The notes under the pieces were generated by a model that had not been told where the DNA came from, ran no database searches, and was given only the letters and a program-made list of their open reading frames with translations. A stretch of 64,000 nt of DNA from a virus: the IMG/VR virus record IMGVR_UViG_3300028581_000012; one strand, written 5' to 3'. How positions within the stretch are numbered: the first letter of the stretch is position 1; each line of letters starts with the position of its first letter. The position numbers and the translations under genes were made by a program. This document shows, in pieces, positions 5,327 to 56,883 of this stretch.

Positions 5327-5350
5327 ATTATTTTTTTTTAGTTATTTTAC

Positions 5351-5358
5351 TATAAATA
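5351..5358 (-). promoter_or_regulatory. TATTTATA upstream motif (putative late promoter)
   Basis: 25 nt before ATG at 5325. Confidence 0.55.
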
Positions 5359-5385
5359 CTTTACAAATACAAAAAAAACCAATCT

Positions 5386-5991
5386 TTACCAAATTTTTTT
5401 TTCTTTCATATAACCAAGAACACAAGTGTAAGAATCCGCCATATCAAAACATTCTTTTTTCAAAGTGTTATTCTTTGTGTAATGCCAAGTGATTTGAGGT
5501 TCTTTATCTGAAACTTTTTTCCAAATAATTTCTTTTTTATCTGCATCTTTTGGTAATCCACCAAACAATACAAATTTATCTTTGTCATTTTTTTGTATTA
5601 AATCAGGCCAAGCATATTTTCTTGAATTGTATGTTGAAATGTAGTTTGGAACAATACCCAAAATATCATAAATTGATTTTGTAATCATTGAATTATATCT
5701 TAAAAGTATCCCAACTGTCCATACATTGTTTGAATTTAATAATGGTTCCTCAATTACTACTTTAGTAATACCAAGGTTTCTGTAATTTTGAAGTTTTTCT
5801 TCAAATGAAACGACCTTTAATAATAACTCTTGGATTTTATCTTCAGGTTTAGGTTTTATCACTGGTGAAAAATGTGTTAATTCTAATAACTCTTTTGATT
5901 GAATGTCAAATAAAGACCACCCGATTGTTCGAGTTGATATGTCTAAGCCAAGAACTTTTGGTGAGTTCTTCAAATCTGATTTTGTCCCCAT
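5386..5991 (-). CDS. RuvC-like Holliday junction resolvase
   Basis: VLGLDISTRTIGWS (RNase H-fold strand 1 Asp), VVIEEP, C-terminal DMADS acidic pair. Confidence 0.75.
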   Translation of the reverse strand: MGTKSDLKNSPKVLGLDISTRTIGWSLFDIQSKELLELTHFSPVIKPKPEDKIQELLLKVVSFEEKLQNYRNLGITKVVIEEPLLNSNNVWTVGILLRYNSMITKSIYDILGIVPNYISTYNSRKYAWPDLIQKNDKDKFVLFGGLPKDADKKEIIWKKVSDKEPQITWHYTKNNTLKKECFDMADSYTCVLGYMKEKKIW

Positions 5992-5997
5992 ATAAAA

Positions 5998-8211
5998 TTA
6001 AAAATCGTACTTAATAGGATACTGTTGGACACCTTGTCTTTTTTCAGGTGATTGTATCTTAGAAATAACCATAAGTTCTTTGTCTGCATTGTAAAGTGCA
6101 ACTTCAGTAACATAAGGTGGTGTCGTACCATCCCAAGTTGGATTTGAAGAATCAAAGAATTGTGTTTGACCTAAATTACATAAGAAGTTCATAACATATA
6201 TAGTTGCTTGAATATCTGTTTCAATTGTACCAAAAAAGAAGAATTCACCACCAAAGTTTAATGTAACCCCCGTTTGATTTAATACAGGTAATGTTATATA
6301 ATCATTAAGGTCATATATTGGTGCAGTGTCATACATATTTTTTGTCAACTGTAAAGTTGTTCCAGTTAAACCTGTTACAGTTAGATAACCACCAACCGTT
6401 GTTGCTGATAACTGTGATGTGACATCAATTTCTCTCCATTGCGTTACATCAGGTCTTGTTGTTGCTGTTGTAACTTTTTGAGCCAATAACTTTATATCAT
6501 TTGCCGTAAATCCTGATGGTAATCCAACTGAAGGTACTTGTAAAAATGGGAACTCATTACCAAACCTAACAAGGATGTCAGAAGCGCCCGGTAATAAACT
6601 TTGGTCGTTTCCTGTGATTGTTTGGTAGTAATTACAATGAAGTGAATTTGTAAATGCTGAGTTATTAAATCTATATGTTAAAAACAAAGTTTCAGTATTT
6701 CCTGTTAACAATCCTTGAGTTCCACCTAAAACGCCACTAAATGTATTTGGTGTTACTAAACCTAATTTAGGTGCCGGTAAAGTCCAACTTCTATTTGATT
6801 TGTAATTTAATGCTGCAACTATTTCATCATCATCAAAAACAATAATTTTTAAATCAGGAAAAACCTTACCAACTCTATTTGGGATACCATTTGAATTTGC
6901 GTGAGTGTCCCAAAGATGATAATATCTTAAACCAGGAGCATTAAAGTTTATACTTTTTCTTGACTCAATATAATGTGGAGTAAATAAATTTAAACTAGTA
7001 AAACCTGATGGGTCTGTATATAATACTTCACCAGTTGTACCACTTGGATTTTTATGCCACATTAACCACGGAATTGAAAGTTTGAAGTTTATTGCTTGAC
7101 CTGTATTTCCCGGATTGTTTGCGTCAAAATCTTGCATTGCAAACTTTTCACCATAATAATTGTCTATTGCTTGATTTGTGTAATGTACAATCGCAATGGC
7201 CTTTTGTTCGGATGGTTTTAGAGTTATTTTTTCAGAAAATGAATTATAAAAATAAACTGAGTCAGTATCTGTTTGACCACTATCGGAATAGTAACCCAAA
7301 TATTCTTTAGAACCCGTATATCCTGTTGATGCGAATTGATTAAAGTCTTGGTTTACCGTATCAAAAATACCAGCCGGTGATTCTGTCCACGGAATGTTCA
7401 TATTCCAAACTTTAACATCATTTTGTGAAACATCACAATTAGTTTCAAAATTAAATACATTCGGATGCCAATAAGGTTCAGGTGTAAAAGAATCATAAAT
7501 AACAGTCATACCTGATGGGTAAAAAACAACTCTTGAGTCACCAGTATAACCCATTCCACTAAAGTTTGGTAGTTGTCTATCAACTTGTATATTTACGGTT
7601 GTCGCAGTAGATGTGTCACCTGTTACTCCAACCACAACATAACTAAATATCGGCGCCGCTCCTGTAAATGGTTGTATGTTATCCGTTCCAAATAAAAATA
7701 AAAACATTCCATTTGTAACTGTACCTGATACCGTTGGGTCAATACTTGAATATGTTAATGTTAATACATCTCCCGAGGTTACCGCCGAATTTGAAACAAT
7801 AAAATTTGGATTAATTGTATAGGCTGTTGAGGTGTATGCACTAAAAACAACGGGTGAGCCAGTTGACCCTGTGAAAAAACCACGAGGAGCTGCACTATTA
7901 AAAACATTATCTATGTAAGACGCATCAAATGGAACACCTAAAGTACTTCCTGATGTTGAGTCCACAAATAACGGGTATTTAACTTGCATTCTATTTTTTT
8001 CAGGAATTGGAGCTAAATTTTGTGCGTTGTATTGAGGCATTAAAACATTAAGTTGTACATAATCTGTATTACTTGTACAGTTATAACAAACTTCACTATC
8101 TCCTACCTCAAAATAAGAAATATCAAATTTACCTTGCGATATCTTTTTTCTTGCTGCGTCAGTGATTATGGTGTTAATTAACGCTGAGGTATTTTTGATT
8201 ATATATGACAT
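5998..8211 (-). CDS. Tail/baseplate structural protein
   Basis: Ser/Thr/Gly-rich; N-terminal ITDAARKKISQGKFDISYFEVGDSE and C-terminal YVTEVALYNADKELMVISK resemble tail-fibre/collar attachment proteins; located in the tail cluster. Confidence 0.6.
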   Translation of the reverse strand: MSYIIKNTSALINTIITDAARKKISQGKFDISYFEVGDSEVCYNCTSNTDYVQLNVLMPQYNAQNLAPIPEKNRMQVKYPLFVDSTSGSTLGVPFDASYIDNVFNSAAPRGFFTGSTGSPVVFSAYTSTAYTINPNFIVSNSAVTSGDVLTLTYSSIDPTVSGTVTNGMFLFLFGTDNIQPFTGAAPIFSYVVVGVTGDTSTATTVNIQVDRQLPNFSGMGYTGDSRVVFYPSGMTVIYDSFTPEPYWHPNVFNFETNCDVSQNDVKVWNMNIPWTESPAGIFDTVNQDFNQFASTGYTGSKEYLGYYSDSGQTDTDSVYFYNSFSEKITLKPSEQKAIAIVHYTNQAIDNYYGEKFAMQDFDANNPGNTGQAINFKLSIPWLMWHKNPSGTTGEVLYTDPSGFTSLNLFTPHYIESRKSINFNAPGLRYYHLWDTHANSNGIPNRVGKVFPDLKIIVFDDDEIVAALNYKSNRSWTLPAPKLGLVTPNTFSGVLGGTQGLLTGNTETLFLTYRFNNSAFTNSLHCNYYQTITGNDQSLLPGASDILVRFGNEFPFLQVPSVGLPSGFTANDIKLLAQKVTTATTRPDVTQWREIDVTSQLSATTVGGYLTVTGLTGTTLQLTKNMYDTAPIYDLNDYITLPVLNQTGVTLNFGGEFFFFGTIETDIQATIYVMNFLCNLGQTQFFDSSNPTWDGTTPPYVTEVALYNADKELMVISKIQSPEKRQGVQQYPIKYDF

Positions 8212-8215
8212 ATTT

Positions 8216-8223
8216 TATAAATA
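8216..8223 (-). promoter_or_regulatory. TATTTATA upstream motif (putative late promoter)
   Basis: 4 nt before ATG at 8211. Confidence 0.55.
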
Positions 8224-8243
8224 TATTTTTTTATAAATTTATT

Positions 8244-9818
8244 TTAAGAAAAACCTATTTTTTGTAAAGGCATAGTTTTAGGTGAACCGTTAACACTTAT
8301 ACCACTACAGGTTGATGGTGTTATAGTAACATTTGTAATTGAAACTGAATCCAATATATACCCTTCTAATTGACATCCTCTAAATTCTATAGTTGGTGTG
8401 TTAATAAATTGGGTAATTGTTCCGTTTATAAGTCCACCTGAAGATATTGTCGCAGTATAAGTATTTGTGTAAGAACTAAAGTTTATATAAGATGAAGCAC
8501 AAGAAGGTCTACTTAATCCTGTTGATGTGACAATTGAATTAACAGGTGAACTAAGTGTTGCACTACCAACAGTTGTTGCGGTTATTGAATTTGTAATTAC
8601 AGGAACGTTTGATGCGAATGTTTTACCTGTAAATCCAACGGCAGTATTAATTGTAAAGTTTACAGTTTTACCAGCAGGTAATGTAGGACTTACATTAATT
8701 TGATAGTACCAAGTTTTTGTTACGGTAGTCCCAACATTCACTTGATTAGCTAAAGGTGTCAAACTTAAATTTAAAACATAATTAGTAAATGCACTTTGTG
8801 GTGTTAGAGTTACTGATTGTGTTGTAACAGTATTATTGGTATCTTTAATATGAACTGTATAATTTCCAGCAACTAAACCTAAAAAGACATTTGACGCTTG
8901 GTAATTAACCCCATTTATTGAATAAGTGTAAGAAGGGACCCCACCATATCCTGTCACATTTAACACTCCATTACTTGTATTTGAGCAAGTTGGTTGGGTT
9001 GTTACAACAGATAATGTAAGTGGTGGTGTTGTGCAAACTCCTGTACTAACTAATACGGTTCCTTGATAAGTCCCTAACAATGACCAATTTCCTGTTGGTG
9101 GTGTTGTTGGTTGAAGTAGTGCGGGTACACCAGGATTAGTCCATCCACTTATTTCCCATCTTGTATTTCCTGTGTTGTAGTACATTGTTGTTGTTGAACT
9201 TGTCCAAGATGGGTATCCATTAATTGTTGAACCGCTTGTGTATGTGGTTAGATATGTGTTGTTTAATGAAGGAGTATATTCAAAACATAAATTTTGTGGG
9301 TAAACCGGTGTAGGTACTGGTGGTGGTAAACAATCTGAACAAGTATCAAATGGCCCTGTAGAAATTACTGCAAAATTATTTACATAGGATTGTCCCGTAT
9401 AAAGTGTTTGACCACTATGTGTCCAACAACCCGTTTGTGTTGTTAAACTATAAACTTTACCATCAACAAACTTAGATGGTAAATCGGCAACATAATAAAC
9501 AAAGTTTCCTGAATTTTGACAATCCTCAAATTGTTCCAAATAAAAACTATCATAGTCAACACTACAAGTTGTTCTTCCTGTAAAATCACCATAATAATCA
9601 ATAACCGTTGCGGTATAATCACCAGGTAGTAAGTTTGTTATTAAAGAACCTTGAGCTCCGTTGCTCCAAGAAATATTATATGGTGGTGTTCCTCCTGTAA
9701 CATAAAGAGTTATAAGACCATTTGTAGAATCAGGTGTTGACGCATTAATACTATCACAATCTAACCCCAATGGTAGAAGTGTTATTATATTACAACTATT
9801 TCCACTTAAAAGTCCCAT
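8244..9818 (-). CDS. Tail fibre/adhesin-like protein with SprB-like repeats
   Basis: NGLITLYVTGGTPPYNISWSNG...LLPGDYTATVID and TCSNTSNGVLNVTGYGGVPSYTYSING...LVAGNYTVHIKD. Confidence 0.7.
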   Translation of the reverse strand: MGLLSGNSCNIITLLPLGLDCDSINASTPDSTNGLITLYVTGGTPPYNISWSNGAQGSLITNLLPGDYTATVIDYYGDFTGRTTCSVDYDSFYLEQFEDCQNSGNFVYYVADLPSKFVDGKVYSLTTQTGCWTHSGQTLYTGQSYVNNFAVISTGPFDTCSDCLPPPVPTPVYPQNLCFEYTPSLNNTYLTTYTSGSTINGYPSWTSSTTTMYYNTGNTRWEISGWTNPGVPALLQPTTPPTGNWSLLGTYQGTVLVSTGVCTTPPLTLSVVTTQPTCSNTSNGVLNVTGYGGVPSYTYSINGVNYQASNVFLGLVAGNYTVHIKDTNNTVTTQSVTLTPQSAFTNYVLNLSLTPLANQVNVGTTVTKTWYYQINVSPTLPAGKTVNFTINTAVGFTGKTFASNVPVITNSITATTVGSATLSSPVNSIVTSTGLSRPSCASSYINFSSYTNTYTATISSGGLINGTITQFINTPTIEFRGCQLEGYILDSVSITNVTITPSTCSGISVNGSPKTMPLQKIGFS

Positions 9819-9819
9819 A

Positions 9820-11394
9820 TTACCAAGTTGCTCCGCTTATTCTTTTCCAACCTGTGTTGTCTTTATAGTAAAAATAACTATTGTCCCATCGTAAAGAACC
9901 GGGTTCTCCTAATGTGTCTAAACTACTTGTTGGTGTACCTGAATAAGCCAAAACAATGTTTGGAACATATACTGTATTTGATAATGTTGCAGTAATACCA
10001 GTCCCTCCTAAAATAACTGAACGAAATGTATTTACCGTATTTCCTGAACCACCAATAATTGCAGAATCATAAACTGGAGCTGAAGGTCCAGAACCCGTGA
10101 TGGTATTATATTTTCCTCCTAAAATTGTTGAGTTATCCGTATCACCACTCTGAATTAAATTAGAAATACCTCCTAATATCGCACCTTGTGAATTATTAAT
10201 TGTAGATTGTTTACTATAAACAAAAGATAATTCCCCGTTATTTATGTTGTCATTTCCCCCCGCAAAAGCTTTGTCTGAGTTAATTTGATTTGCTACCCCA
10301 ATAATAAATGAATTATTCCCTTCTATTTTGTTAGAGTCCCCAAAAGAAACTGAACTTGTTCCGACCACATAATTATTATTATTAAAAACACAAGAATTGA
10401 TGCCAAATACGGTGTTGGATTTTCCTTGTGCAAAAGTAGATTTACTTAATGCGTTATTAGTTTCATTTATAGCCATTGAAAAATCTCCCAAGGCTGCAGC
10501 ACTGCTACCTTTAGCGTTAGAAATGAATCCACCAACGTTTTGGTTACCATTCCAAGTAGAAACAGGCGCAGTATTTCCAACAACCGCAAATGAACTAGTA
10601 CTTGTTGAAATATCGTACAAATAAATTATTGTTTGACTTCCGTTAAAAGTTGCTCCTGATACTTTTCTATAGGTTTCAGTTAAAGTATTTGCATATGACA
10701 CATCATTTATATACACATAATCATCTGAAGTATATTCTGTTGTGATGTCACCATAAGAACTTGAAAGGTAAATAACTCCAGCAGTCAATCCTGTTGCTAA
10801 ATATCCTTTGTTTGTACCGGCCAAAGTTCTATAACCTTCAGCGTGTGAATAAGTACCTATTGCAATTGTAGTCTTACCTTCAGCGTGAGATGCATTTCCA
10901 AATGCAAGTGTGTTTTCACCTTCAGCGTGTGAAGTAATTCCTGACGCGATTGTACCTGAACCTTCAGCGTGTGTGTAATTACTTAACGCTTGTGTATTAT
11001 TACCAAACGCAAAAGATAAAGTCCCTTGAGCATCAGAACCTGTGGATTGAACTCTATTATGTACTGTTATTTCGTTTGAACAAGCATGAATATTTTCAGT
11101 GTAAAAACTTGTAATACAATTTCCCGAACCACCTGTAAATGGTGTTGTAAGACCTGAAACGGTAAAAGTTCCGCCAGTACTATTGGTAAAAGTTAATGTA
11201 CCTCCTGAAGAAACTGCAGTTCCACCTGTTAAATATACATCAGGTGAACCCCCAAATAAAGGTACCAACTGACTTAGTGATGCTTTATATGATGAACCAC
11301 TAGCACTTTGTGATGTATCACCTGTTATTACAATATGTATAAGGTCATTAAGTGAAGCCCCTGTGGCGAATGTCCTTGATGTTAAAGTTGCCAT
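9820..11394 (-). CDS. Tail fibre/receptor-binding protein with YadA-head-like repeats
   Basis: Four HAEG repeats of 14-aa period (e.g. SHAEGENTLAFGNA), beta-helix-like ILGG..N.I repeats, C-terminal GSLRWDNSYFYY...WKR. Confidence 0.75.
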   Translation of the reverse strand: MATLTSRTFATGASLNDLIHIVITGDTSQSASGSSYKASLSQLVPLFGGSPDVYLTGGTAVSSGGTLTFTNSTGGTFTVSGLTTPFTGGSGNCITSFYTENIHACSNEITVHNRVQSTGSDAQGTLSFAFGNNTQALSNYTHAEGSGTIASGITSHAEGENTLAFGNASHAEGKTTIAIGTYSHAEGYRTLAGTNKGYLATGLTAGVIYLSSSYGDITTEYTSDDYVYINDVSYANTLTETYRKVSGATFNGSQTIIYLYDISTSTSSFAVVGNTAPVSTWNGNQNVGGFISNAKGSSAAALGDFSMAINETNNALSKSTFAQGKSNTVFGINSCVFNNNNYVVGTSSVSFGDSNKIEGNNSFIIGVANQINSDKAFAGGNDNINNGELSFVYSKQSTINNSQGAILGGISNLIQSGDTDNSTILGGKYNTITGSGPSAPVYDSAIIGGSGNTVNTFRSVILGGTGITATLSNTVYVPNIVLAYSGTPTSSLDTLGEPGSLRWDNSYFYYKDNTGWKRISGATW

Positions 11395-11418
11395 TTTTTA
11401 TTTTATATATATCATAGT

Positions 11419-11709
11419 TTATTGAAAGTCGTATGGTATTCCGTCTTGGAATTCAAAACATATTAAATTTTCAAATTGTTTATATGTGCAAAAACTATCT
11501 GAACAGAATTCACATCCATTTGCATCTATTATTTTAATAACATAACTGTTCATTGATTCAAAGGAAACAGGTAAGGTAAATGAATATGGTACGGTAGTAA
11601 TTGTTGCAATATATTGACAAGTACCATATATACCACATTCATCGCAAACCCACACGTCGTATGGACTTGTTCCTGATATAATTGTGTTAAGTGTTACTAT
11701 TGTTGCCAT
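11419..11709 (-). CDS. Small Cys-rich tail-fibre adaptor-like protein (paralog family)
   Basis: SGTSPYDVWVCD...IKIIDANGC shared with 16282..16569 and 16573..16782; likely start MATIV (11709), track start 11718. Confidence 0.65.
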   Translation of the reverse strand: MATIVTLNTIISGTSPYDVWVCDECGIYGTCQYIATITTVPYSFTLPVSFESMNSYVIKIIDANGCEFCSDSFCTYKQFENLICFEFQDGIPYDFQ

Positions 11710-11711
11710 TT

Positions 11712-13322
11712 TTAACAAACTCCATTAACTGTGCAGAACTCAGTGATTACACCACTATTATCAACACTATAAATTTTATTTCCGTATCTTATATAATCAA
11801 TCGTCAAAGGATATAATAATGATGAATTACTATAAACTGTAACACCTGTTTGTATTTGATTAATTGAAGGGTGGGTATAGAATATTGTTTGAACTCCAAA
11901 GTTTGTTAATTGACATCCTGGACAATTAACTGAATATGCACCATTACCTATCCAAGTATTAAATGTACCAACGAGTGGTTCAACTTGTAAACATTCTGTG
12001 CAGTCAACATATGTTGTTGCTGTTGTCGCCGTAAATCTATCTTCATTTACCACAATATAACCTGAAGGTGGAACATAATTTATAAAGTATCCTACATAAC
12101 TATAACAATTTCCGGAATAATCCCTAATTACTTCTCCTGGGTCTAGATTTGTTGGTGGATATGCTGTTTGTGTAATCATAGATGTTGTCGTACAAGATGT
12201 GAACACAAAGTAAGTACCAGGGGCATATGTTGGTGTAGGTGTCGGCGTAGGTGTAGGTGTCGGAGTTGGTGTCGGAGTTGGTGTAGGTGTCGGAGTTGGC
12301 GCTGGACAAACAGTACATCCTGTGTACGCTGAAACAACAAGTTTAACTGTCGCGTTTGGACTAGCAGTTGTATCTTGTATGTAAGTTGCACATTTTAATT
12401 GGTCGTTAATGACACCCAAGAACGTCTGACCTGTTGTTATTGGTGTTCCTGATATATCTAAAGAACCTGAAACATAATAAGTGACGTTTTCATTACAATC
12501 TCTTAACTCTTTAACTCTAAAACATACAAAGTTTCCATCATCAATTGTAAATGTTACAGTTTCACCCGTTAAATTAATTGTTGGTGTCGGTGTTGGAGTT
12601 GGTGTAGGAGTTGGAGTTGGTGTAGGAGTTGTTCCACTAACTGTAATATCAACGGTAAACCCTGAACATATATCGGGTGTTGGTGATGGTGTCGGAGTTG
12701 GTGTGGGTGTTGGAGTTGGTGTGGGTGTTGGAGTTGGGGTTGGTGATACACATAACACATCAACTTCAAAATCAAATATATCACAAACAGGTGTTGGTGT
12801 TGGCGTTGGAGTAACACAAGAACCTGCGTAAAATAAATCCGTATATAAATTTGGACAAGTTGATAATGTTGGGTCTTGTCCAAAGAAATAACAACCTGTT
12901 CCAGGTGCTGTACCTAAACACCATTTTGTAGGTCCTTTATAAATGTATCCCGGTTGTGTTCCACCTGTAAAAAACGGTAAAGTATTATAACTTCCCGCCA
13001 CAACATAACTACCACTATATGCTGAAAAATTTACATCGTTAATTTGAACACAATACACATTTGAACAACATTCTCCCGTTGCGCAAAATGATGATGAGCA
13101 ACCTGATAGTTGTTGGGTGTATATTCCGTTAGGTACAATACTTGTTGCAGTGAATCCTGAAGTGAATGCAGATACTATAGTATAACATCCATTAACAACA
13201 ACACTATCATAAGTGACACTAAAAACTGTTGTAACAGCCGATGTTGCACCGGTCCAATTTGATTGGTCCGTATAATATTGTAATCCGGGATAACAACAAC
13301 TTTGTAAGAGTATATTCGCCAT
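11712..13322 (-). CDS. Cys-rich tail-fibre-like protein with mucin-like Pro-Thr linkers
   Basis: Four (PT)n tracts separating Cys-rich modules. Confidence 0.7.
12229..12812 (-). repeat. Pro-Thr dipeptide repeat tracts (about 12229-12303, 12580-12633, 12675-12745, 12788-12812)
   Basis: ggtgtaggtgtcggagttggtgt... synonymous-variant hexamer repeats. Confidence 0.9.
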
Positions 13323-13341
13323 TAAAAAATTAACTTTATAA

Positions 13342-13349
13342 TATAAATA
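13342..13349 (-). promoter_or_regulatory. TATTTATA upstream motif (putative late promoter)
   Basis: 19 nt before ATG at 13322. Confidence 0.55.
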
Positions 13350-13367
13350 AGCTTATGTTTATTTTAT

Positions 13368-14165
13368 TTACAACTCAAGGTCCGTTTCTTCAGGAAGATA
13401 GTTATAAAAGTGTTTATATGCGTGAATAAAAGCAACATCGGGCTGTTCTTCCATAGGTATTGACCAACCACTTTTATCCCACCAATTTCCTTTATTTTTT
13501 GAATCGTATTCTGCCCAATCATTCCAAACACCACTTGTATAACCAAAAAATTGAAAAAGAAATGAAAGTGTCGCATCACACCACTCGATTGGTCTTGAAT
13601 CCAACTGATATATTTCACCCCAAGGAACCTCGTTTAAATTATTATATATTTCAATAAATTTTTTACGATTGAATATTGCCCCTCCACACGCACCATAACC
13701 TTCTAATGAGCCAATCTCACTCCAATAATGTCGTGATTCGTCTGTTATATTGAATTTGTTTTTCAAATATTTGTAAAGTTCAGGAGTATACATAGGTCCG
13801 TTTGCTCCCGCAATATCAAAAGTCGGTGGTTTTGTTATTTCACATTTACACCAAACATCATCTTCATAATGTATTACCCAATCAACGTCTTTTAATGTTG
13901 TCACACAAGCATCATAAATTCTTTTTAACCAATCCAAAGGTCCATTTTCACCTAAAAAAACCCTACCCGAATGAGGATTATTAATTCCTTGTTGTTCAAT
14001 CCAAGTATAGTCACAATTAAATTTTTTTGCAACAGGCTCTAATAATTTAGAACCATCTTCATATAACGCAACTGGAATGTTTGGGTAAATTTTTCTTAAC
14101 TGTTCTAGCGCTTTATAACAAGCAACAAGTTTATGCCCTGATTGATAAAATGCACCTATTTTCAT
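13368..14165 (-). CDS. Glycosyltransferase, GT-A fold
   Basis: MKIGAFYQ...LRKIYPNIPVALYEDG, VIHYEDDVW (DxD-like), CGGAIF, WCDATLS, C-terminal FIHAYK. Confidence 0.7.
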   Translation of the reverse strand: MKIGAFYQSGHKLVACYKALEQLRKIYPNIPVALYEDGSKLLEPVAKKFNCDYTWIEQQGINNPHSGRVFLGENGPLDWLKRIYDACVTTLKDVDWVIHYEDDVWCKCEITKPPTFDIAGANGPMYTPELYKYLKNKFNITDESRHYWSEIGSLEGYGACGGAIFNRKKFIEIYNNLNEVPWGEIYQLDSRPIEWCDATLSFLFQFFGYTSGVWNDWAEYDSKNKGNWWDKSGWSIPMEEQPDVAFIHAYKHFYNYLPEETDLEL

Positions 14166-15403
14166 ATTTCACCTGTTATTTGTTTTATCCACCCATTTTC
14201 TTTATGGTGTAACCATATTGACCACGATTTAGCAGAATCATCAACCATAAAGGTTCTCTTAATTTGGACGTAGTCACTTTTAACACTATAACAAGTTTTT
14301 AATTCGTCTTCAGAGGCATCTTCTCTAAATATTTCACCACCAAATTCATCTAAAAATGAAACGGCCCAAAAATCATAATTATCTTCAGGTGCTTCAATTC
14401 TTGGAACAACTATATTGTATGTGAATTTATTTAGTTTTGTTTCAAACCAATTTGAGTCGTCGTTAATTGGCGGGTCAGTCCCTTTTAATGTTTCGGGGTG
14501 TAATCTTCTTTTTTTAAAATCAATACCAGCATATAACTCATAATCCCTATGAGACCTTACATCACCTAAACCAAATTCCCCTAAATCAATATTATTATCT
14601 TCTTCTTGTAACATATGTCTTAATCTAACCAACCCTTCTGAATTGATTACATGCCATTCTTTTTCAATTAGACCACTTTTTACATTTTCTTCATTAAAAT
14701 CATCCCAATGTTTAGTTCTACCTATTCTTGTATATTCATGCCAAACAACTGTCTTATGGGGGTGGAATAAATCATAACCCAAAGTATAAGACCTAATAGA
14801 TAGACTTATTTCATCACCTGCAAAATATATATTTGGGTCGTACTTGTACTCATCACAATGTTTACCTAATGTAAAAAAGAAATGACCGCTTACAAATCTT
14901 GCAGGTATAGGTTTTTCTAATTTTTGCCAATTTGGTATTTGTTCAGGATAAAAGAAAATTGTTCCATACTCTGAAAACTTTCTTGCAACACACTTGTATG
15001 GTTCTTCGTTTAATAACTTATTAGTTTTTGGTTCATACATACCTGCGTATGCGGTAATTATTGGTTTTTCAACACCAGTTAATTTCATCATTTCAATTAA
15101 TTCTACATCCCAATCTTGTAAAAAACGGTGATGTGAGTCTAATTGCATTGTGTATTCTTCACCCTTCCATAGTTTTTGAATAAGACTTCTAGCCCAACAT
15201 AAACCTTTACTTTTGGTCCAGTGATAGTCCAAAATTGTGAACCTTTCGTCTTTTTGAAACTCTTCTAAGGATTCATTTTCGTCTCTTTGCCAACAAAGAC
15301 CGAATGTTAGATTTTCAGGATATTTTGCTTTATTAATACAATCTCTAATTGTTGGTAAGAGTTCGGGGTCGCGATAAGATGCGATTTGAACAAATATTTT
15401 CAT
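14162..15403 (-). CDS. Glycosyltransferase resembling GT60 (Skp1-hydroxyproline/polypeptide alpha-GlcNAc transferase, 'GlcNAc' family)
   Basis: IFVQIASYRDPEL, SKGLCWAR, QLDSHHRF..WD, FVSGHFFF, YDPNIYFAGDEISLSIRSYTLGYDLFHP, WHEYTR. Confidence 0.85.
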   Translation of the reverse strand: MKIFVQIASYRDPELLPTIRDCINKAKYPENLTFGLCWQRDENESLEEFQKDERFTILDYHWTKSKGLCWARSLIQKLWKGEEYTMQLDSHHRFLQDWDVELIEMMKLTGVEKPIITAYAGMYEPKTNKLLNEEPYKCVARKFSEYGTIFFYPEQIPNWQKLEKPIPARFVSGHFFFTLGKHCDEYKYDPNIYFAGDEISLSIRSYTLGYDLFHPHKTVVWHEYTRIGRTKHWDDFNEENVKSGLIEKEWHVINSEGLVRLRHMLQEEDNNIDLGEFGLGDVRSHRDYELYAGIDFKKRRLHPETLKGTDPPINDDSNWFETKLNKFTYNIVVPRIEAPEDNYDFWAVSFLDEFGGEIFREDASEDELKTCYSVKSDYVQIKRTFMVDDSAKSWSIWLHHKENGWIKQITGEI

Positions 15404-15451
15404 AAAGAAAAATTATCAAATAAAGTATACAAATAAACATTTTTTTAAAAA

Positions 15452-16258
15452 TTAATTCCACACTTGGATATAACCTAAATAAGATGTAAATGAGTTAGTT
15501 GTTCCTCCACTCATTATTAATTGAAAATCTCCTCCCGTAAAACCAGAAACCGTTACGGGGGTCGACGCATCTGAAAGTGCATATCTTTTAAAATCACCAT
15601 TATTGTCACACCATCCAATAGAATAACAACCGATTGCTGTACCACCACTAAAAACAATTTCACCAAATATTTCGGATGGATGGTTATTTGCTTGGGCGGT
15701 AGACGCACCAAGGATAGTATAACTAATTAATGTGTCTGAACCAAATTTTGTAACCATTTCAATAGTAGGTGAGTTGTCCAAAGACCCCCATATACCCGTT
15801 ACCCTAAAATGTATAATTTTTGAAATATAATTAACACTATCAGTAAAAAATTGAGTTGTAAAATTTTTTGAGCCAAAATTTGTTGCCCCACTAAATAAAT
15901 CAGCACTTGACCCAACTCCATATGTAATAACATTATTTCTAGTATAAATAGTTCTCATTGCAACTCCACCCAAAATATCTGTATTCCCACTTATTGAGTT
16001 TAGTGATGGTGAAGTACCTGATGTTCCGTTTGTGCCGCTAGTTCCGTTTGTACCTGAAGTACCATTCGTACCACTTGACCCTGAGGAACCACTAGTCCCA
16101 CTACTACCTGAAGTTCCAGCAATTGATGCTGTTATCGCACTAAAAGGTACCGCCTCAGTTCTACCACTTGTAATTGGTGTGTAATTAACAATAACTAATA
16201 ATGAATTGGCGTATCCTGTGGTTGCTGCCGGTAAGGAGGATATTGGTAAATCTGGCAT
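15452..16258 (-). CDS. Short fibre protein with Gly-X-Y (GTS/GSS/GTN) collagen-like repeat
   Basis: N-terminal MPDLPISSLPAATT; about 12 G-X-Y triplets GTSGSSGTSGSSGSSGTNGTSGTNGTSGTNGTSGTS. Confidence 0.7.
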   Translation of the reverse strand: MPDLPISSLPAATTGYANSLLVIVNYTPITSGRTEAVPFSAITASIAGTSGSSGTSGSSGSSGTNGTSGTNGTSGTNGTSGTSPSLNSISGNTDILGGVAMRTIYTRNNVITYGVGSSADLFSGATNFGSKNFTTQFFTDSVNYISKIIHFRVTGIWGSLDNSPTIEMVTKFGSDTLISYTILGASTAQANNHPSEIFGEIVFSGGTAIGCYSIGWCDNNGDFKRYALSDASTPVTVSGFTGGDFQLIMSGGTTNSFTSYLGYIQVWN

Positions 16259-16265
16259 AGGTTTT

Positions 16266-16273
16266 TATAAATA
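16266..16273 (-). promoter_or_regulatory. TATTTATA upstream motif (putative late promoter)
   Basis: 7 nt before ATG at 16258. Confidence 0.55.
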
Positions 16274-16281
16274 AATATTTG

Positions 16282-16569
16282 TTATGTTATTTTGATTCTA
16301 AATCCATCTTCTTGTAATATATAAAAACCATCTTCTTGTAATAAATAACTTCCACAATCAATTTGTATTTCTCTTATACACCCATCCGCAGTTATAACTT
16401 TAATATAAACAATGTCTTCATTTGGAAAAAAAACTGATGAATCTATTACGACATTTGGTGGGATAGAAGTGACCCCTGATACATAAAAACAAGATACGTT
16501 TGTTGGGTCACATATATAAACATCATATGGACTTGTGCCACTTGTTACTCCAGTAATTTCTATTATCAT
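16282..16569 (-). CDS. Small Cys-rich adaptor-like protein with LQEDG repeats
   Basis: SGTSPYDVYICD...IKVITADGC; C-terminal YLLQEDGFYILQEDGFRI. Confidence 0.65.
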   Translation of the reverse strand: MIIEITGVTSGTSPYDVYICDPTNVSCFYVSGVTSIPPNVVIDSSVFFPNEDIVYIKVITADGCIREIQIDCGSYLLQEDGFYILQEDGFRIKIT

Positions 16570-16572
16570 AAT

Positions 16573-16782
16573 TTAACAATTTACTTCTTGAAATGTTTCA
16601 CAACCGTTATCATCAATAGCCTTTATAACTAATGAACTCGCACCACTGTAATATGCACTTAAAACATAAGTACCAAGTGAAGTACCAAGAAGTGAGCAGT
16701 TGTTACCATTTTGGTCACAAACATAATAATCAATTGGAGGCGTTCCTCCTGTTAAACCCGTTATGTCTATAGAATAAGGCAT
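16573..16782 (-). CDS. Small Cys-rich protein (paralog family)
   Basis: TGGTPPIDYYVCD...IKAIDDNGC. Confidence 0.65.
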   Translation of the reverse strand: MPYSIDITGLTGGTPPIDYYVCDQNGNNCSLLGTSLGTYVLSAYYSGASSLVIKAIDDNGCETFQEVNC

Positions 16783-19089
16783 CTACGTGTTACAGGTTAC
16801 ATCATACTCTATTGTTAATTCCAATGTAAAATTGGCATCTGATAATGGGTCAAAATCACCTTCACAATTTGATTCAATATGTATTGTATTATCAGTTAAA
16901 CTTATTGTGTAAAGACTAATATCTGTAATACCACTTAAGACACCCTCTATTGTTGATTGCCATAATGTGTCTTGTGGAACGTCGTTTAATGTTGTGGCAG
17001 TATAGAATGGTTGTGTGAAACCTGAACCATTTATATCTAACTCAAGTATGAATTCTGCAGTATTTAAACTACAACCCGTATATCCACTTGTAACGTCAAT
17101 ATAACCTTCATTTAACATTTCTAAAAAGCCTCTTTTTGCGCCAACTGTTGTTGTAAACACATCATTACATAATGAAACGACAGAATAAGTTGTCACGTTA
17201 TTTCCTGAACACGTAATTGTAAAATTGTGAGTTTGTGAACAACCACTACTATCCACAACTTCAACTGAGTAAGTGCCGGCAGTTAATCCTGAAATTGTGG
17301 AACCTGTTTGTCCTGATGGTATGTTGTCAGACCAATCATAAGTAAATGTTGGTTCGCCATCGTAAATTAAAACTTCGGCAGTGCCATTTTGACCATTATA
17401 ACATTGTGTTGTAGAAATTGCTGAAATTAAACTACCTCCTGTTGAAATGGTTATTGATTCTCTTATTTCGCAACCTTCTCCATCGACTATTGTTAATATA
17501 TAACTTCCAGCCGTTAAGTTATTAAATGTATATGCCGTTGCAGATGTATCAATCACTGACTGACCATCACTTAAGATGTAATCTAATGGTAAAGTATAAC
17601 CTGTACTAACTTCAATATATAGTACACCATCAGTTTGCGAACAAGTTGAACCAGTTGTTAATGTTGTTGCACTAAACTTATCCGTTGAAGAAACTGTAAA
17701 TGTTGTTGTATACTCACAATTAGTTCCTGTTGCCGATATTGTTAAGTCATAAGTATCGTTAGTCAAACCTGAAAATGAACTTGTTAAACTTTGTGTTGTA
17801 TTTGTATAAACTTGCCCATTGGTTTGTCCTGATAAACTGTAAGTATAAAAGTTGTTTGACCCTTGTAATGAAATTGAAACTGAACCTAGTTGTTGACTAC
17901 AATTCGAATTTGATACTTGTGTATCAACAACAAAAAATGAGTTAGTAGCATTTATAAATGCACTTATAGTTTCCTTACAAAAATTACCATCAGTAATTTC
18001 TAAATTGTAATTACCGCTTGATAAACCTGAAAGTGTTAGTGTATTACTAAGTGTATATCCAACTTGTGAAGTACTTGCCGAATAGTAATATGGAACACTA
18101 CCACCTGTAATTGTGAAAGTTATACTCCCATCTGATGAAAAACAACTTGGATTGTTTGATGTGACAATACCTAAACCTAATGGTTCGGCTTGACCTATGG
18201 TTTCACTTTTAGTGGTACTACACCCATTTGAGTCTGTAACGGTACAACTATATGTGCCTATTGTTAGACCAGTAATTGTTTGACCGGTTTCACCATTACT
18301 CCAAAGATATGTATATGGTGCGGTTCCTGTTACGCCAGTGACTGAAAGTTTGCCTTGATTTATCACACAAGTCGACGCATCTACTTTCCAAAATCCAAAG
18401 TCTAATGCAGTACTTGCAGAAATAATAGCATTCGCAGTTGTGGCGGTTGACAACCCGTAATCAACAACTTCAACAAAATAAGTATCCGCAGATAAATTTG
18501 TGAACGTATAGGGAAAAAGTGTAGTATTTTGTGATTGTATTGTACCACCACTTGTCTTTAAAAACAAAACATAAGGTGATGATTGTGAATTTGCACTTAC
18601 AGTTAAAGTACCATCGTTTGAGCCACAAAAAGTTCCTGTGACTTCAATAATATCTGTGTAGAAACAACCAGTGATTATTACATTAACATATAATTCATTA
18701 TTTTCATACCCCAATGAATCATTTAATCTAAATACATAAGTGTCCGCAGTTAACCCTGTAAAGGTTATTGGACTTGAGGATGTTTGAGCGGTAATCCCTC
18801 CTGGTATGACATTATCAATAGTGTATGGTGGTATTCCTCCAAAGGGTGAAAATGTAACCGAACCTGTTGGGTCTGAACAAGTTCCTGTTACCGAAAATGA
18901 TAATCCAATTGGTTGTTCTTCGCAAGTTGGGTCGCAAGAACTATCCTCATCAATATATATACCATATGACGACCCAGAGTATACGCCATCTACACAAATA
19001 CTTTCACCTAAAGATGCCCCTGTTCTGGTGACACCACAACAGTCAATATAATAATATACACCATCCGTTAATCCTGTATAACAAGCCAT
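16783..19089 (-). CDS. SprB-like repeat-containing tail protein
   Basis: Multiple C...DG.I.....GG..PY.Y.WSNG......GL..G.Y...V.D..GC repeats. Confidence 0.8.
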   Translation of the reverse strand: MACYTGLTDGVYYYIDCCGVTRTGASLGESICVDGVYSGSSYGIYIDEDSSCDPTCEEQPIGLSFSVTGTCSDPTGSVTFSPFGGIPPYTIDNVIPGGITAQTSSSPITFTGLTADTYVFRLNDSLGYENNELYVNVIITGCFYTDIIEVTGTFCGSNDGTLTVSANSQSSPYVLFLKTSGGTIQSQNTTLFPYTFTNLSADTYFVEVVDYGLSTATTANAIISASTALDFGFWKVDASTCVINQGKLSVTGVTGTAPYTYLWSNGETGQTITGLTIGTYSCTVTDSNGCSTTKSETIGQAEPLGLGIVTSNNPSCFSSDGSITFTITGGSVPYYYSASTSQVGYTLSNTLTLSGLSSGNYNLEITDGNFCKETISAFINATNSFFVVDTQVSNSNCSQQLGSVSISLQGSNNFYTYSLSGQTNGQVYTNTTQSLTSSFSGLTNDTYDLTISATGTNCEYTTTFTVSSTDKFSATTLTTGSTCSQTDGVLYIEVSTGYTLPLDYILSDGQSVIDTSATAYTFNNLTAGSYILTIVDGEGCEIRESITISTGGSLISAISTTQCYNGQNGTAEVLIYDGEPTFTYDWSDNIPSGQTGSTISGLTAGTYSVEVVDSSGCSQTHNFTITCSGNNVTTYSVVSLCNDVFTTTVGAKRGFLEMLNEGYIDVTSGYTGCSLNTAEFILELDINGSGFTQPFYTATTLNDVPQDTLWQSTIEGVLSGITDISLYTISLTDNTIHIESNCEGDFDPLSDANFTLELTIEYDVTCNT

Positions 19090-22037
19090 TAATTACAATT
19101 TATACTAGCGTTTATACCTATATTTAAGTAGAGTTTTTTGTTTGTGAAGTCATCATAACAAGTTGAGTTACTAATTATTAAAGTTTTACCTGCAAAATAG
19201 TAGTTCAAACCTTGGTTATACAACCCTACTAATTTGTTATCGATTTCCGTTATAATTTGAGCAACTGTAGGAACGTCATAGAACCCATACCCCGTATAGA
19301 ATTGTTCTTGTACTAATATTGTATTATCCAATCTACAATCAACAAACCATTCCGAAACTATACTAGTTAAATCACAATTCGCCTGTGTATATCCACTTTG
19401 AGCGACAACTGCACTCAACACTTGAGTTAAATATGTTTGAGGGCTTTGGAAATTCAATTCACAAGATAGGGTTTGGTCAATACAATCATAACCAAATAAC
19501 TGACCGTCGAATGTACAAGGTACACATTCAACTTGAATAAATTGGCATCCTCTTTGTCTTCTCCATACAAACTTTTGTCTATGGAAAATTGAATTCTCCA
19601 TTTTTTGACCCGTTAACCAAAGAGTTGTTGCTGGAACCAATTGTTCCAATAATCTTTGCCAATAATCACCAATACCTAAAGTATAATCAATCATTTTTTG
19701 ATATGTGAATTGATTAGAAGGTATACCTACGGTTTGTTGTGACTGAAGATATTTCCAATATATTGATTGGAGTGTTGGATATCCCCCTGTTTTACCATCA
19801 AAAATAGTTTGTCTATTACGAACATTAATCATATTCATAAAGAATGATTGTGCAAACTCAAAGAAAGTTTTTTGTTTTGGTTTTGGATTAACAAATGTCC
19901 AATCAATTGCACCAGGATATGGGTAAGGTGATGTAAGACCTGAGTTTGGAATTGGGTAGTCATATTTAACACACATATCCCAAACGTCATAAACTAACCC
20001 TTGACCCATATTAATGTTTAGTTCAATATTTTTAGAGTTAATAATTTGCTTATCACTCGTTACTGTATAATCAACTCCATTAAAATTTGAGTCGTTTTTT
20101 CTATTACCAATATCATCAACTGACCAAGACTTTTGATTATCAAATATTTTTGTAATAGTATAACCTTCATTTAGATATGGAAACTTTGTAAATCGGTTTA
20201 AGTATTCTTGACCGTATGAAGGTGCTTGTAACTTTGTTAGAACACTAGGAACATTTTGATTAAGTTGTGAATTTTCTAAATCAACAACTTGAGGTGCCCT
20301 ATGTTTAGGACTTGACTCAAACCAACCTGAACCTTTTTGATAAAAATAATCATCAGTTTGTTGAGGAGCTTTTGGGTATCCGTCGTCAGATATGCCGTAG
20401 TCATTTAAAGTTGTTGTTACCGTTTCGACTCTTCCATCAGTAGTAAAACCTGTATAAGTAACACCATGCACCGAAAAAGTATTTGTTGGGTCTAATGCCG
20501 GTCTTTCAACATATACTGTCCCACCACTAATTTTAGCATAGTTTTCTTTAAATTGCTCAACATTAATTTTAGAATCCACTAAATAAACAACCTCGTTAAA
20601 TTCTGTAATTGCTTCAGGTGCCCCAATAAGTCTCATTATGTATTCTAAAGAATTTCTTGTACCTTTAGATTTGAACATATAGGCAGAATTTAAAATTACG
20701 TTTCTATAATATTGATAATTTAACTCTGATGGTGTTTGGTCTTGAGCCTGACCTGTATAAATTTGTTCAGAACTTGTACTAAATACTGCCTCTAATAATT
20801 GGTCATTATTAATCGGTGATATGTTGGTATTTACTCCGAGTGTTTGCGCTAAATTGACCAAAAGTTGTGATGGTATATCATTTCCAACTTTATAATTAAC
20901 GGAGTTCATATTAGCCAATGCGTCAATAAACTTTTTAACCTCATCAAAACTTCTACCGTAAATTTGTAGAATTTTTTCCATTTTTTGGTCTTGGGTGTCA
21001 AAGTCTTTAAATGCCCCTGTTGTTAAAAATCTAGATATTAAATTTGTTTTATATTCATCTAAATTTAATGATATATTACTTAACTTATCTAAGTAATTGT
21101 CAAAATTTGATGATACTATATCTAAATTCCAAGTCCCATCTAAAAACCAAGTAACACTTTCAATTTTTAAAGTAAAATCACCATTAGAGTCATAGTAAGG
21201 ATACTGAAAAGTTGATGTATATTTAGGTTGACTATTTCTATTTAAAATAAAATCCTCAACTTCATCAAATTCATCTTGAAATATTTCTGCCGTTTTTTGT
21301 GTATTGGGTTTTATAATTAAATTATCAGTTGATGCGGTTACCCCTGAAAAAGGGTCTCCAATTACTGTCATCGTGATGGTACCTGCAGTTAAAGTTGTTG
21401 AGGGTATAAAATCAACTAAAGGATATTCTGTAGTAACACTTGAAAAGTATAAACTAAAATCTTGATAATTGTTTGTTATATCTCGGTATTTAGAAACTTT
21501 GATTGGTCTAACTTGTAAGTTTCTTCTTGCATTTGTAGAAAAATCAATGTCAAATGGATTTGTAATCCACGGAACATTAACATCAAAAGTTGTTAAATTT
21601 TCTATTGGGTCAAAAGTAATGTTAATAGCCGTATAACCCGTTGTTAATGACAATGTTTGGTTTCTTACATCAAGAGCCGCTGGATAATAACTAATTATTT
21701 TTGTTACAGATGCCGATAATCTTTTTTGTAGTGAACCATACAAGGTAAAACTTGTGACTTGTGAAATATCAAAATTTGGATAAACTGAAAAATTCTTTTG
21801 TATTATTTTTTTGGTTTGCTCAATATCTTCAATATTAAGATTTTCCAAATTATAAAGTTGTGAAAATACACCTAAATCAAAATTTCTGTTTACCTTTTCA
21901 TAAATGGCAGTTGTAAATTCAAAATTTCCTTGTGTTAAACCACCACCAGTAACCAACTGAAATCCAACAATATTGTTAAAAGCAGTAGAACTACCTACAG
22001 GGGGAGCCGGTGGATATCTAAAAATTTGTTTTGCCAT
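19089..22037 (-). CDS. Baseplate wedge protein (gp7/P2 gpI-like)
   Basis: IPSQLLVNLAQTLG and YMFKSKGTRNSLEYIMRLIG motifs typical of wedge/tail-I proteins; position downstream of the gp6-like gene. Confidence 0.6.
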   Translation of the reverse strand: MAKQIFRYPPAPPVGSSTAFNNIVGFQLVTGGGLTQGNFEFTTAIYEKVNRNFDLGVFSQLYNLENLNIEDIEQTKKIIQKNFSVYPNFDISQVTSFTLYGSLQKRLSASVTKIISYYPAALDVRNQTLSLTTGYTAINITFDPIENLTTFDVNVPWITNPFDIDFSTNARRNLQVRPIKVSKYRDITNNYQDFSLYFSSVTTEYPLVDFIPSTTLTAGTITMTVIGDPFSGVTASTDNLIIKPNTQKTAEIFQDEFDEVEDFILNRNSQPKYTSTFQYPYYDSNGDFTLKIESVTWFLDGTWNLDIVSSNFDNYLDKLSNISLNLDEYKTNLISRFLTTGAFKDFDTQDQKMEKILQIYGRSFDEVKKFIDALANMNSVNYKVGNDIPSQLLVNLAQTLGVNTNISPINNDQLLEAVFSTSSEQIYTGQAQDQTPSELNYQYYRNVILNSAYMFKSKGTRNSLEYIMRLIGAPEAITEFNEVVYLVDSKINVEQFKENYAKISGGTVYVERPALDPTNTFSVHGVTYTGFTTDGRVETVTTTLNDYGISDDGYPKAPQQTDDYFYQKGSGWFESSPKHRAPQVVDLENSQLNQNVPSVLTKLQAPSYGQEYLNRFTKFPYLNEGYTITKIFDNQKSWSVDDIGNRKNDSNFNGVDYTVTSDKQIINSKNIELNINMGQGLVYDVWDMCVKYDYPIPNSGLTSPYPYPGAIDWTFVNPKPKQKTFFEFAQSFFMNMINVRNRQTIFDGKTGGYPTLQSIYWKYLQSQQTVGIPSNQFTYQKMIDYTLGIGDYWQRLLEQLVPATTLWLTGQKMENSIFHRQKFVWRRQRGCQFIQVECVPCTFDGQLFGYDCIDQTLSCELNFQSPQTYLTQVLSAVVAQSGYTQANCDLTSIVSEWFVDCRLDNTILVQEQFYTGYGFYDVPTVAQIITEIDNKLVGLYNQGLNYYFAGKTLIISNSTCYDDFTNKKLYLNIGINASINCN

Positions 22038-22945
22038 TATTCAACTATGTTCGTAAAGTTTTTACTATAATCAATGTTATTATTTCTATCTTGTCTAACT
22101 TCATAAAGAAGCTCATTGAATGTATCTCTAATTTCAAACAAGTTGTATTGTTTGTAGATGTTGCCAGCACTATCGTAAAGAGTGTAAATACCATCTTCAA
22201 TACTTTTAGTTTGGTTCCCATAAAGAGCAATTGCCAACGTATCAATATCGTATTCAGCCATTTGAATATCGATAGTTATCGGATTGAAAAATGTATTAGT
22301 TATTATAATGTTTTGATTTGGTTGTCCAATAAATGGTATTGCGTTTGGTTTATTAGACGGTGATGAAGACGGTGAAACAGTACAAAAAATTAAATCTGTT
22401 GGGTTATCAACATATCTATATCTTATGGCCTTTTGTGATGTATTAACTTGTTCTGTCACCACGGGTTCACAATAAAATGATGAGGTTACTATTCTATAAA
22501 AATTTGGGATTTTGGTGCCGTCAGAATTTAAATACTCAATTCTAAACCCAACGAGTCCTTGGTTAACAAACTTGTTTCTATACTGTGAAGGAACACTGTT
22601 AATATCAATAATGATACCTTTAACGTTTGGTAGTGCAGATAGAACACCACAATCGGTAATTGTTGTTCTAATTTCTGCAGGTCTTATCATTAAAGTATAT
22701 ATTCCTAATCTACTAAACTCTGTTGCCGGTAGTTTAAGATTGTATAATCCTCCTAATATTTCTACATTATTGTTTCCACCAGTGTCGGAATTATGGAAGT
22801 ATGGTGTTAAAATATTTGCAGCATTTAATTTTTTCAATAAAAAATTATCTGTCACATCTCGTGAAGGTGTATAGTGAAGAATGATTTCAACATCTTCAGG
22901 TGATACGTCAGCGGGTCTAGTTATGCCGTATGTGCCAAGTGCCAT
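22037..22945 (-). CDS. Hypothetical structural protein
   Basis: 302 aa ORF in the tail cluster, TATTTATA upstream, TAATG overlap with the next gene. Confidence 0.65.
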   Translation of the reverse strand: MALGTYGITRPADVSPEDVEIILHYTPSRDVTDNFLLKKLNAANILTPYFHNSDTGGNNNVEILGGLYNLKLPATEFSRLGIYTLMIRPAEIRTTITDCGVLSALPNVKGIIIDINSVPSQYRNKFVNQGLVGFRIEYLNSDGTKIPNFYRIVTSSFYCEPVVTEQVNTSQKAIRYRYVDNPTDLIFCTVSPSSSPSNKPNAIPFIGQPNQNIIITNTFFNPITIDIQMAEYDIDTLAIALYGNQTKSIEDGIYTLYDSAGNIYKQYNLFEIRDTFNELLYEVRQDRNNNIDYSKNFTNIVE

Positions 22946-22955
22946 TTTTTTATTT

Positions 22956-22963
22956 TATAAATA
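22956..22963 (-). promoter_or_regulatory. TATTTATA upstream motif (putative late promoter)
   Basis: 10 nt before ATG at 22945. Confidence 0.55.
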
Positions 22964-22977
22964 GTTTATGTAATTTT

Positions 22978-56869: not shown

Positions 56870-56883
56870 TTATTTGTTTATTT

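Follow-up and report, generated by a model that had tools for sequence, protein, structure and literature searches.

Glycosyltransferases of CAZy family GT60 are polypeptide α-N-acetylglucosamine (GlcNAc) transferases that are related to family GT27 and have no ricin domain (PMC8724618), and one member, Gnt1, acts on a hydroxyproline of Skp1 (PMC6939170). Glycosylation of phage virions is already known, and in mycobacteriophages capsid and tail-tube subunits carry glycans at their C termini (Freeman et al. 2023, as quoted in PMC12619734). The 'moraphages', large aquatic phages of ∼200–307 kb with predicted Bacteroidota hosts, have four core glycosyltransferase groups; virion glycosylation is given as one possibility for these, with no family or target named and no link to GT60 or to Pro-Thr sequences (PMC12619734). 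Here we describe a GT60 gene in a 64,000-nucleotide stretch of DNA, the IMG/VR virus record IMGVR_UViG_3300028581_000012 (the whole stretch is referred to below as the window). Between positions 11,712 and 16,258 this gene and a second predicted glycosyltransferase gene interrupt a run of fibre-like genes, and we consider it probable that they form a cassette for O-glycosylation of Thr and Ser in the linkers of the phage's own fibres, with α-GlcNAc added first and then extended.

To our knowledge, virion glycosylation is well documented in a few actinobacteriophages and in giant viruses but in no tailed phage of aquatic bacteria, and we know of no phage case based on the enzyme family by which mucin-type glycans are initiated. 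Searches of the literature for GT60 or PF11397 together with phage turned up nothing but a list of CAZy families from a virome, in agreement with an initial annotation of this region, which knew of no characterised GT60-based phage system. What is new here is a variable island of sugar genes fixed in position before a Pro-Thr (PT) protein gene, the exact swap of a cassette, the fold of the second enzyme, the presence of homologs in bacteria, and the limits to the association of GT60 with PT tracts.

The two glycosyltransferases

The 413-residue (aa) product of the first gene matches PF11397 with an E value of 6.3e-64 (217.1 bits, cut-off 21) and phrog_24687 over its full length (E 1.9e-104), and it contains the segments IFVQIASYRD, LDSHHRF and FAGDEISLS. 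Residues 1–320 form, in the predicted structure, a catalytic GT-A domain with a DxH motif (D89-S90-H91), the metal-binding signature that, with a downstream His, is shared by GT27 and GT60. An alignment of 20 homologs with identities down to 39% shows no variation at these three residues or at H214 and H222. PDB sequence and profile searches with either enzyme of the pair gave no match, and matches came from fold comparison alone. The AlphaFold model of the GT60 protein (mean confidence, pLDDT, 84) has polypeptide N-acetylgalactosamine (GalNAc) transferases as all of its 29 top PDB entries (Z 19–22.5, root-mean-square deviation 3.2–3.9, 262–284 residues), at identities of 14–19%; the next tier consists of generic GT-A enzymes with Z no higher than 17.6. 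No ricin-type lectin domain was matched by Pfam in this protein. Beyond the Pfam coverage, residues 320–413 are modelled as an extra six-strand beta domain of ∼95 residues, which could not be matched to a known fold and is shared with other viral GT60 clusters and with bacterial homologs. On these sequence matches the assignment to CAZy GT60 made in the initial annotation is firm, and the nearest solved folds are those of mucin-type polypeptide GalNAc-transferases.

The second protein (265 aa) has no Pfam, NCBIfam, PHROG or PDB sequence match, and its 131 homologs, in which E101-D102-D103 is invariant, are all unannotated. Its structural model is confident (pLDDT 89), and all 50 of the 50 best structural matches are nucleotide-sugar GT-A enzymes. 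Foldseek ranks GT6 enzymes first (E ∼1e-8); an independent aligner ranks GT31-type enzymes and LgtC first (Z 11.7–13.9), and many GT-A families are matched about equally, TarP included at Z 10.0. Because a confident model matches GT-A enzymes throughout, the protein is predicted to be a GT-A glycosyltransferase, and one of a phage-only family. The suggestion that this gene encodes a second glycosyltransferase was beyond the reach of sequence alone and is now supported by the model and its fold matches. We also considered a diverged HtrL_YibB protein (PF09612), a candidate that was rejected: there is no Pfam match, and hhalign against an HtrL-like alignment gave a probability of 0.4%. The HtrL genes found at this place in relatives (see below) are replacements of the 265-aa gene, not orthologs.

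Gene order and cassette exchange

The order of transcription is collagen-like gene, GT60, 265-aa gene and 536-aa PT gene. The initial annotation is borne out in every detail: the four genes and their repeats are at the stated coordinates, all on the minus strand (Table 1), and the ATG of the 265-aa gene overlaps the GT60 stop codon TGA in the ATGA at 14162–14165; the 265-aa gene appears to be translationally coupled to GT60. The pair is embedded in a structural module and flanked by fibre-like genes on one strand, an order that is kept in relatives. No intergenic terminators were found in the block, in which same-strand genes are separated by gaps of 45–48 nt.

Comparison with the nearest relative found (locus L024, in G001) shows 92.5% DNA identity over 16007–23436 and 91.4% over 6123–13368, and the proteins that flank the cassette are 97–99% identical. 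In the interval between these two regions (Table 1) there are patches of 67–77% within GT60 only and no match in the second gene. The GT60 protein of L024 is 52% identical to that of the window, and the second gene there encodes HtrL_YibB. One boundary of the swap lies exactly at the stop codon of the second transferase and the other inside the collagen-like gene. The GT60/GT-A pair thus behaves as an exchangeable module in a hypervariable fibre region, and related phages therefore probably carry different glycans.

We surveyed the lineage using the conserved 737-aa protein (Table 1) as an anchor, with locus contexts drawn from IMG/VR and GTDB scans, and recovered 80 loci with 59 distinct architectures. 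The PT protein has an ortholog in 54 of the 59, nearly always directly after a sugar-gene island, and GT60 lies one to five genes upstream of it in 42 of the 54 (one or two genes in 38). Twelve architectures seem to be exceptions, but in two of these (L132 and L170) GT60 is just beyond the fetched stretch. Among relatives in which GT60 has 40–95% identity to the window's enzyme, the place immediately ahead of the PT protein is maintained, and GT60 persists beside the PT protein where the second gene is absent or replaced.

The island itself varies considerably. GT60 is found alone, with the window's GT-A gene, with HtrL_YibB, with DUF3431, two unknown genes and HtrL_YibB, or ahead of a GT10-like gene and an HtrL fusion; further variants have a GT29-like gene on the opposite strand, or an HtrL-DUF3431 fusion together with a Galactosyl_T-like gene and uridine diphosphate (UDP)-galactopyranose mutase. 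Slots without GT60 are filled by GT29-like, GT10-like, HtrL_YibB, DUF3431, Galactosyl_T-like or UDP-galactopyranose mutase genes. In L154 the mutase gene (4428–5531) is directly before the PT-protein ortholog, which has a PT tract of 8 residues there, and this adjacency suggests galactofuranose in the glycan of that phage. Two relatives without GT60 (G012, 88% complete, and G013) have no (PT)5 tract.

GT60 relatives occur in more than 570 IMG/VR stretches, and the protein search gave 6656 matches. A set of 106 GT60-anchored loci falls into 76 clusters at 85% GT60 identity, of which 56 are outside the lineage; for these, expected counts were derived from the other genes in the same loci. A protein with (PT)4 or longer is within two genes of GT60 in 11 of the 56 (5.0 expected, binomial p 0.0096), and a Ser/Thr/Pro-rich tract is nearby in 17 (9.4 expected, p 0.0087), although these p values are rough because the loci are not independent samples. 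The initial annotation had proposed a survey of the gene neighbourhoods of phage GT60 homologs, and both within and outside the lineage the enzyme is linked to Pro-Thr proteins. PT-rich proteins are directly beside GT60 in L018 (tracts of 149 and 120 residues), L040, L041, L043 and L047. In G010, a distant relative that is 98% complete, GT60 is 170 kb from the fibre module; it comes directly after the gene for a 1314-aa protein with a Ser/Thr/Pro-rich tract and a match to a PHROG 'virion structural protein', and is followed by about nine small genes. GT60 heads cassettes with GT2, GT8-like, GT25 and sugar O-methyltransferase genes in other lineages.

Full-length homologs (35–52% identity) are also present in the genomes of 273 bacterial species from many phyla, and 17 of 71 bacterial GT60 loci adjoin giant Ser/Thr/Pro-rich proteins, as in a conserved arrangement in Sphingomonas. 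On a 1.6-Mb contig of Sphingomonas sp. BE123 (L249) two tandem GT60 genes are preceded by the gene for a 1186-aa Ser/Thr/Pro-rich protein with an Rv2525c-like glycoside-hydrolase-like domain, and followed by that of a protein with the eCIS core domain (PF13699); this locus may connect GT60 with bacterial injection systems that resemble phage tails. At 7917–11126 of L027, GT60 is fused into a 1069-aa protein with four PF11397-matching stretches and a weak GT2 match in Pfam. Among GenBank phages only four Xanthomonas and Stenotrophomonas jumbo phages have a GT60 homolog (35–40% identity). In the Xanthomonas phages Xoo-sp13 (L001) and XacN1 (L002) the homolog is followed by genes for a 765-aa carbamoyltransferase and conserved unknown proteins, a context unlike that of the window, and the target of GT60 in these phages may differ too.

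The source phage is an uncultured large freshwater myovirus with a GC content of ∼31% and with nearly all of its genes in the window on the minus strand. Related IMG/VR records of 84–120 kb are rated 29–41% complete and the largest relatives are 295 kb, so the genome is probably near 290 kb. Genes elsewhere in the window include those for ribonucleotide reductase, a DnaB-like helicase, a UvsX-like recombinase and a single-stranded DNA-binding protein, and between the wedge gene and position 5998 there is a run of fibre-like genes with SprB, YadA-head and collagen-like repeats recognised by Pfam and PHROG. Megablast of the region gave no GenBank phage match, and tblastn with the 737-aa and PT proteins found no GenBank phage homolog. 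The small 95-aa and 99-aa proteins are paralogs (35% identity, E 4e-12) that both begin TSGTSPYDV-x-x-CD and are kept in nearly all relatives. The motif TATTTATAAAA, which may be a late-promoter-like element, has exact minus-strand copies at 8213–8223, 22953–22963 and 56881–56891 besides that in Table 1, and all four are in intergenic DNA just upstream of minus-strand structural genes. With one mismatch allowed there are 29 copies against 19.7 in shuffled sequence (sd 4.9), which is not above chance, and neither promoter-like nor terminator-like sites exceed their frequency in shuffled sequence.

Table 1. Coordinates of the cassette, its neighbours and other structural features in the window.
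Feature	Position	Strand	Basis
Cys-rich modular protein, 536 aa, four (Pro-Thr)n linkers	11712–13322	-	translation
Second glycosyltransferase, 265 aa, predicted GT-A fold	13368–14165	-	predicted structure
GT60 glycosyltransferase, 413 aa	14162–15403	-	PF11397, phrog_24687
Collagen-like fibre protein, 268 aa	15452–16258	-	weak Pfam Collagen, PHROG tail-fibre matches
Exchangeable cassette (distal collagen-like gene, GT60, second transferase)	13369–16006	.	DNA comparison with L024
Candidate promoter-like motif TATTTATAAAA, just before collagen-like gene	16263–16273	-	
Small 95-aa protein, before collagen-like gene	16282–16569	-	
Small 99-aa protein, after PT protein and before YadA-head fibre gene	11419–11718	-	
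YadA-head repeat protein, 524 aa (fibre)	9820–11394		
SprB-repeat proteins	16783–19089 and 8244–9818		
Conserved 737-aa protein, encoded four genes downstream	5998–8211		
gp6-like baseplate wedge	31537–33375		
Tail sheath	61636–63972		

Candidate acceptors and competing explanations

We propose the 536-aa protein as the main acceptor. Its PT tracts are 8, 24, 18 and 24 residues long (12789–12812, 12675–12746, 12579–12632 and 12228–12299, respectively), and because they use mixed synonymous codons they are evidently preserved as protein sequence, not as a DNA microsatellite. We note that the fibre-like proteins of this region are rich in cysteine, with 28 in the 536 residues of the PT protein and 25 in the 768 residues of the SprB-repeat protein at 16783–19089; the Cys-rich modules are split by linkers, which is odd for proteins that fold in the bacterial cytoplasm.

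The collagen-like protein carries GTSGSSGTSGSSGSSGTNGTSGTNGTSGTNGTSGTS, with (G-T/S-S/N)n repeats at residues ∼47–84, and matches PHROG tail fibres and, weakly, Pfam Collagen (E 3.8e-5). Its gene is absent in L004 and L005, and since GT60 in L004 is 95% identical to that of the window, the collagen-like protein is not a required partner and is a possible but optional acceptor. The initial annotation had set the enzymes between repeat proteins on both flanks, and the optional nature of the collagen-like protein limits its interpretation. The distal part of the collagen-like protein is hypervariable among relatives. This part (15404–16009) and the centre of the 524-aa YadA-head fibre (10375–10918) give weak alignments (≤68%) or none, even against relatives that are ∼85–89% identical in the adjoining DNA, and both are probably receptor-binding regions under diversification. 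No N-terminal handle common to these two proteins was found. A 2186-aa protein far from the cassette (50309–56869, minus strand) has a Ser/Thr/Pro-rich tract, TESTTPNPTAAETTTPKPTP, at residues ∼1533–1552 and is another possible acceptor.

In the mechanism we propose, the pair would be transcribed with the fibre genes late in infection, and GT60 would act as a soluble cytoplasmic enzyme that binds UDP-GlcNAc and Mn2+ via its DxH motif and attaches α-GlcNAc to Thr/Ser of the (Pro-Thr)n linkers in the neighbouring 536-aa protein; other Ser/Thr-rich tracts, such as the collagen-like repeats, may also be substrates. The coupled GT-A enzyme would then add a second sugar. Mucins and the glycosylated Pro-Thr linkers of cellulases are stiff, extended and protease-resistant, and by analogy the modified linkers might be so too, presenting an altered surface. 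Stiffening, shielding, adhesion or a coat on the baseplate are conjectural benefits. Glycosylation of the phage's own fibres is favoured because it accounts for the class of enzyme, for its constant placement ahead of the PT gene, for the reappearance of this association in unrelated contexts and for the exchange of extending enzymes.

Several observations weigh against this interpretation. A mucin-like neighbour is missing from as many as 39 of the 56 GT60 loci outside the lineage, and within the lineage the loci are not independent, since the linkage is largely inherited synteny. Both G010 and G011 carry GT60 and have no (PT)5 tract, and a strict one-to-one rule for GT60 and PT tracts was dropped for that reason; conversely, four relatives whose slot has a GT29-like gene and no GT60 keep PT tracts (13–62 residues), albeit on contigs that are 10–18% complete. 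The homologs in Xanthomonas and Stenotrophomonas jumbo phages are beside a carbamoyltransferase gene and near DNA polymerase and RNase H genes, and the L020 cassette abuts a family B polymerase gene. The PT protein has no Pfam or PHROG match, its role as a virion component being suggested by position and context, and HtrL_YibB, GT25 and GT8 enzymes are best known from lipopolysaccharide loci. The glycosylation module proposed by the initial annotation is partly supported, as regards the GT60 family, the GT-A fold of the second enzyme and the PT linkage, and it is limited by the many loci outside the lineage that have no mucin-like protein nearby.

A different role, which we think rather unlikely, is that the cassette remodels a surface glycan or glycoprotein of the host, such as lipopolysaccharide core, capsule, S-layer, pilin or flagellin, possibly to exclude superinfecting phages or to facilitate release; the site in the fibre region would then simply reflect tolerance of insertions. 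The partners found in the slot (HtrL_YibB, GT25, GT8-like, GT10-like, GT29-like, FkbM and CmcI sugar methyltransferases, and UDP-galactopyranose mutase) are indeed characteristic of loci for envelope glycans, the region is a hot spot of recombination, phrog_24687 falls in the PHROG category 'moron, auxiliary metabolic gene', and most GT60 loci outside the lineage are without PT neighbours. However, the GT60 fold fits polypeptide transferases markedly better than GT-A enzymes directed at lipids or glycans, and no flippase, polymerase or polyprenyl-phosphate transferase was found in the islands scanned. Nor would remodelling of the host account readily for a place before the PT gene that is held while GT60 itself diverges, or for PT neighbours in unrelated contexts.

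Two further alternatives concern the acceptor. Characterised GT60 enzymes of the Gnt1 type act on hydroxyproline (PMC6939170), and with half of each PT repeat being proline, the sugar might be attached there after prolyl hydroxylation, as in Skp1. We regard this as very unlikely: no prolyl hydroxylase was found among the window proteins scanned, which comprise most of the larger open reading frames, and a 2OG-Fe(II) prolyl hydroxylase domain (PF13640) is in none of three related records, although this is weak evidence in that the records (84–120 kb) are 29–41% complete. Modification of the phage's DNA, in which a glycosylated hypermodified base would allow escape from restriction, seems the least probable of all, even though it is a common role of phage glycosyltransferases and would suit the polymerase-associated contexts in the jumbo phages and L020. 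Known GT-A enzymes that act on DNA are of the JGT or TarP kind, their genes are usually found together with those for 5mYOX, thymidylate-synthase-like proteins or C5-methyltransferases, and GT60 is not mentioned among them (bioRxiv 10.1101/2023.12.21.572611). No PHROG or Pfam match to any of these three partners was found among the scanned window proteins, PF00303, representing thymidylate-synthase-like genes, is in none of the three related records, all incomplete, and the GT60 gene of the window is inside a fibre module.

If O-glycosylation of the phage's own fibres is correct, Pro-Thr linkers in tail proteins are decorated by a common class of freshwater phages, with effects on adsorption, stability, grazing, protease resistance and antibody recognition, and a polypeptide GlcNAc-transferase that is soluble and active in bacteria could usefully be applied to produce mucin-like glycoproteins. 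It would also bear on the origin of the eukaryotic GT60 and GT27 enzymes. A bolder and more doubtful proposition, which we offer tentatively, is that large aquatic phages run a true mucin-type O-glycosylation in the bacterial cytoplasm, that exchangeable cassettes headed by GT60 give near-identical phages different fibre glycans in an arms race of glyco-serotypes, and that phage and bacterial GT60 are the prokaryotic reservoir of the GT60/GT27 lineage by which mucin glycosylation is begun in eukaryotes.

Comparison with known systems

By their description, the moraphages resemble the phages studied here in their freshwater origin and in having several glycosyltransferases; the relatives here are estimated at ∼290 kb and have SprB repeats, which suggest a host among the Bacteroidota. 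Glycosylated repetitive fibres with transferases encoded by the virus or the locus are known from the structural proteins of giant viruses and from the collagen-like BclA of Bacillus anthracis spores. These systems and the phages here also share variable multi-enzyme cassettes with sugar methyltransferases among their genes, although the enzyme families and hosts differ and there is no link by descent. In mycobacteriophages, as in the window, glycosyltransferase genes are placed with structural genes and are thought to decorate the virion. The likely targets here are, in contrast, internal Pro-Thr linkers of tail or fibre proteins, the initiating enzyme belongs to GT60, and the phages are uncultured jumbo-type myoviruses from freshwater.

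With the protist members of GT60 (Gnt1 and the pp-αGlcNAcTs of Dictyostelium and Trypanosoma cruzi) the phage enzyme shares PF11397, the DxH motif, a GT-A domain and the lack of a ricin-type lectin domain. The protist enzymes use Thr/Pro-rich mucin-like acceptor tracts (PMC8724618), and similar tracts are those that we propose for phage GT60. Unlike them, the phage enzyme is phage-encoded, would work in the cytoplasm of bacteria, where there is no Golgi, has no membrane anchor, and carries the extra C-terminal beta domain of ∼95 residues. The animal polypeptide GalNAc-transferases of GT27 are its closest solved structures, with Z up to 22.5 over ∼280 residues. The identity is 14–19%, the phage protein has no ricin lectin domain, and it is not a member of GT27. 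The pathway that we propose follows the GT27 one in its order of events, in which an initiating enzyme acts first and an extending GT-A enzyme builds on its product.

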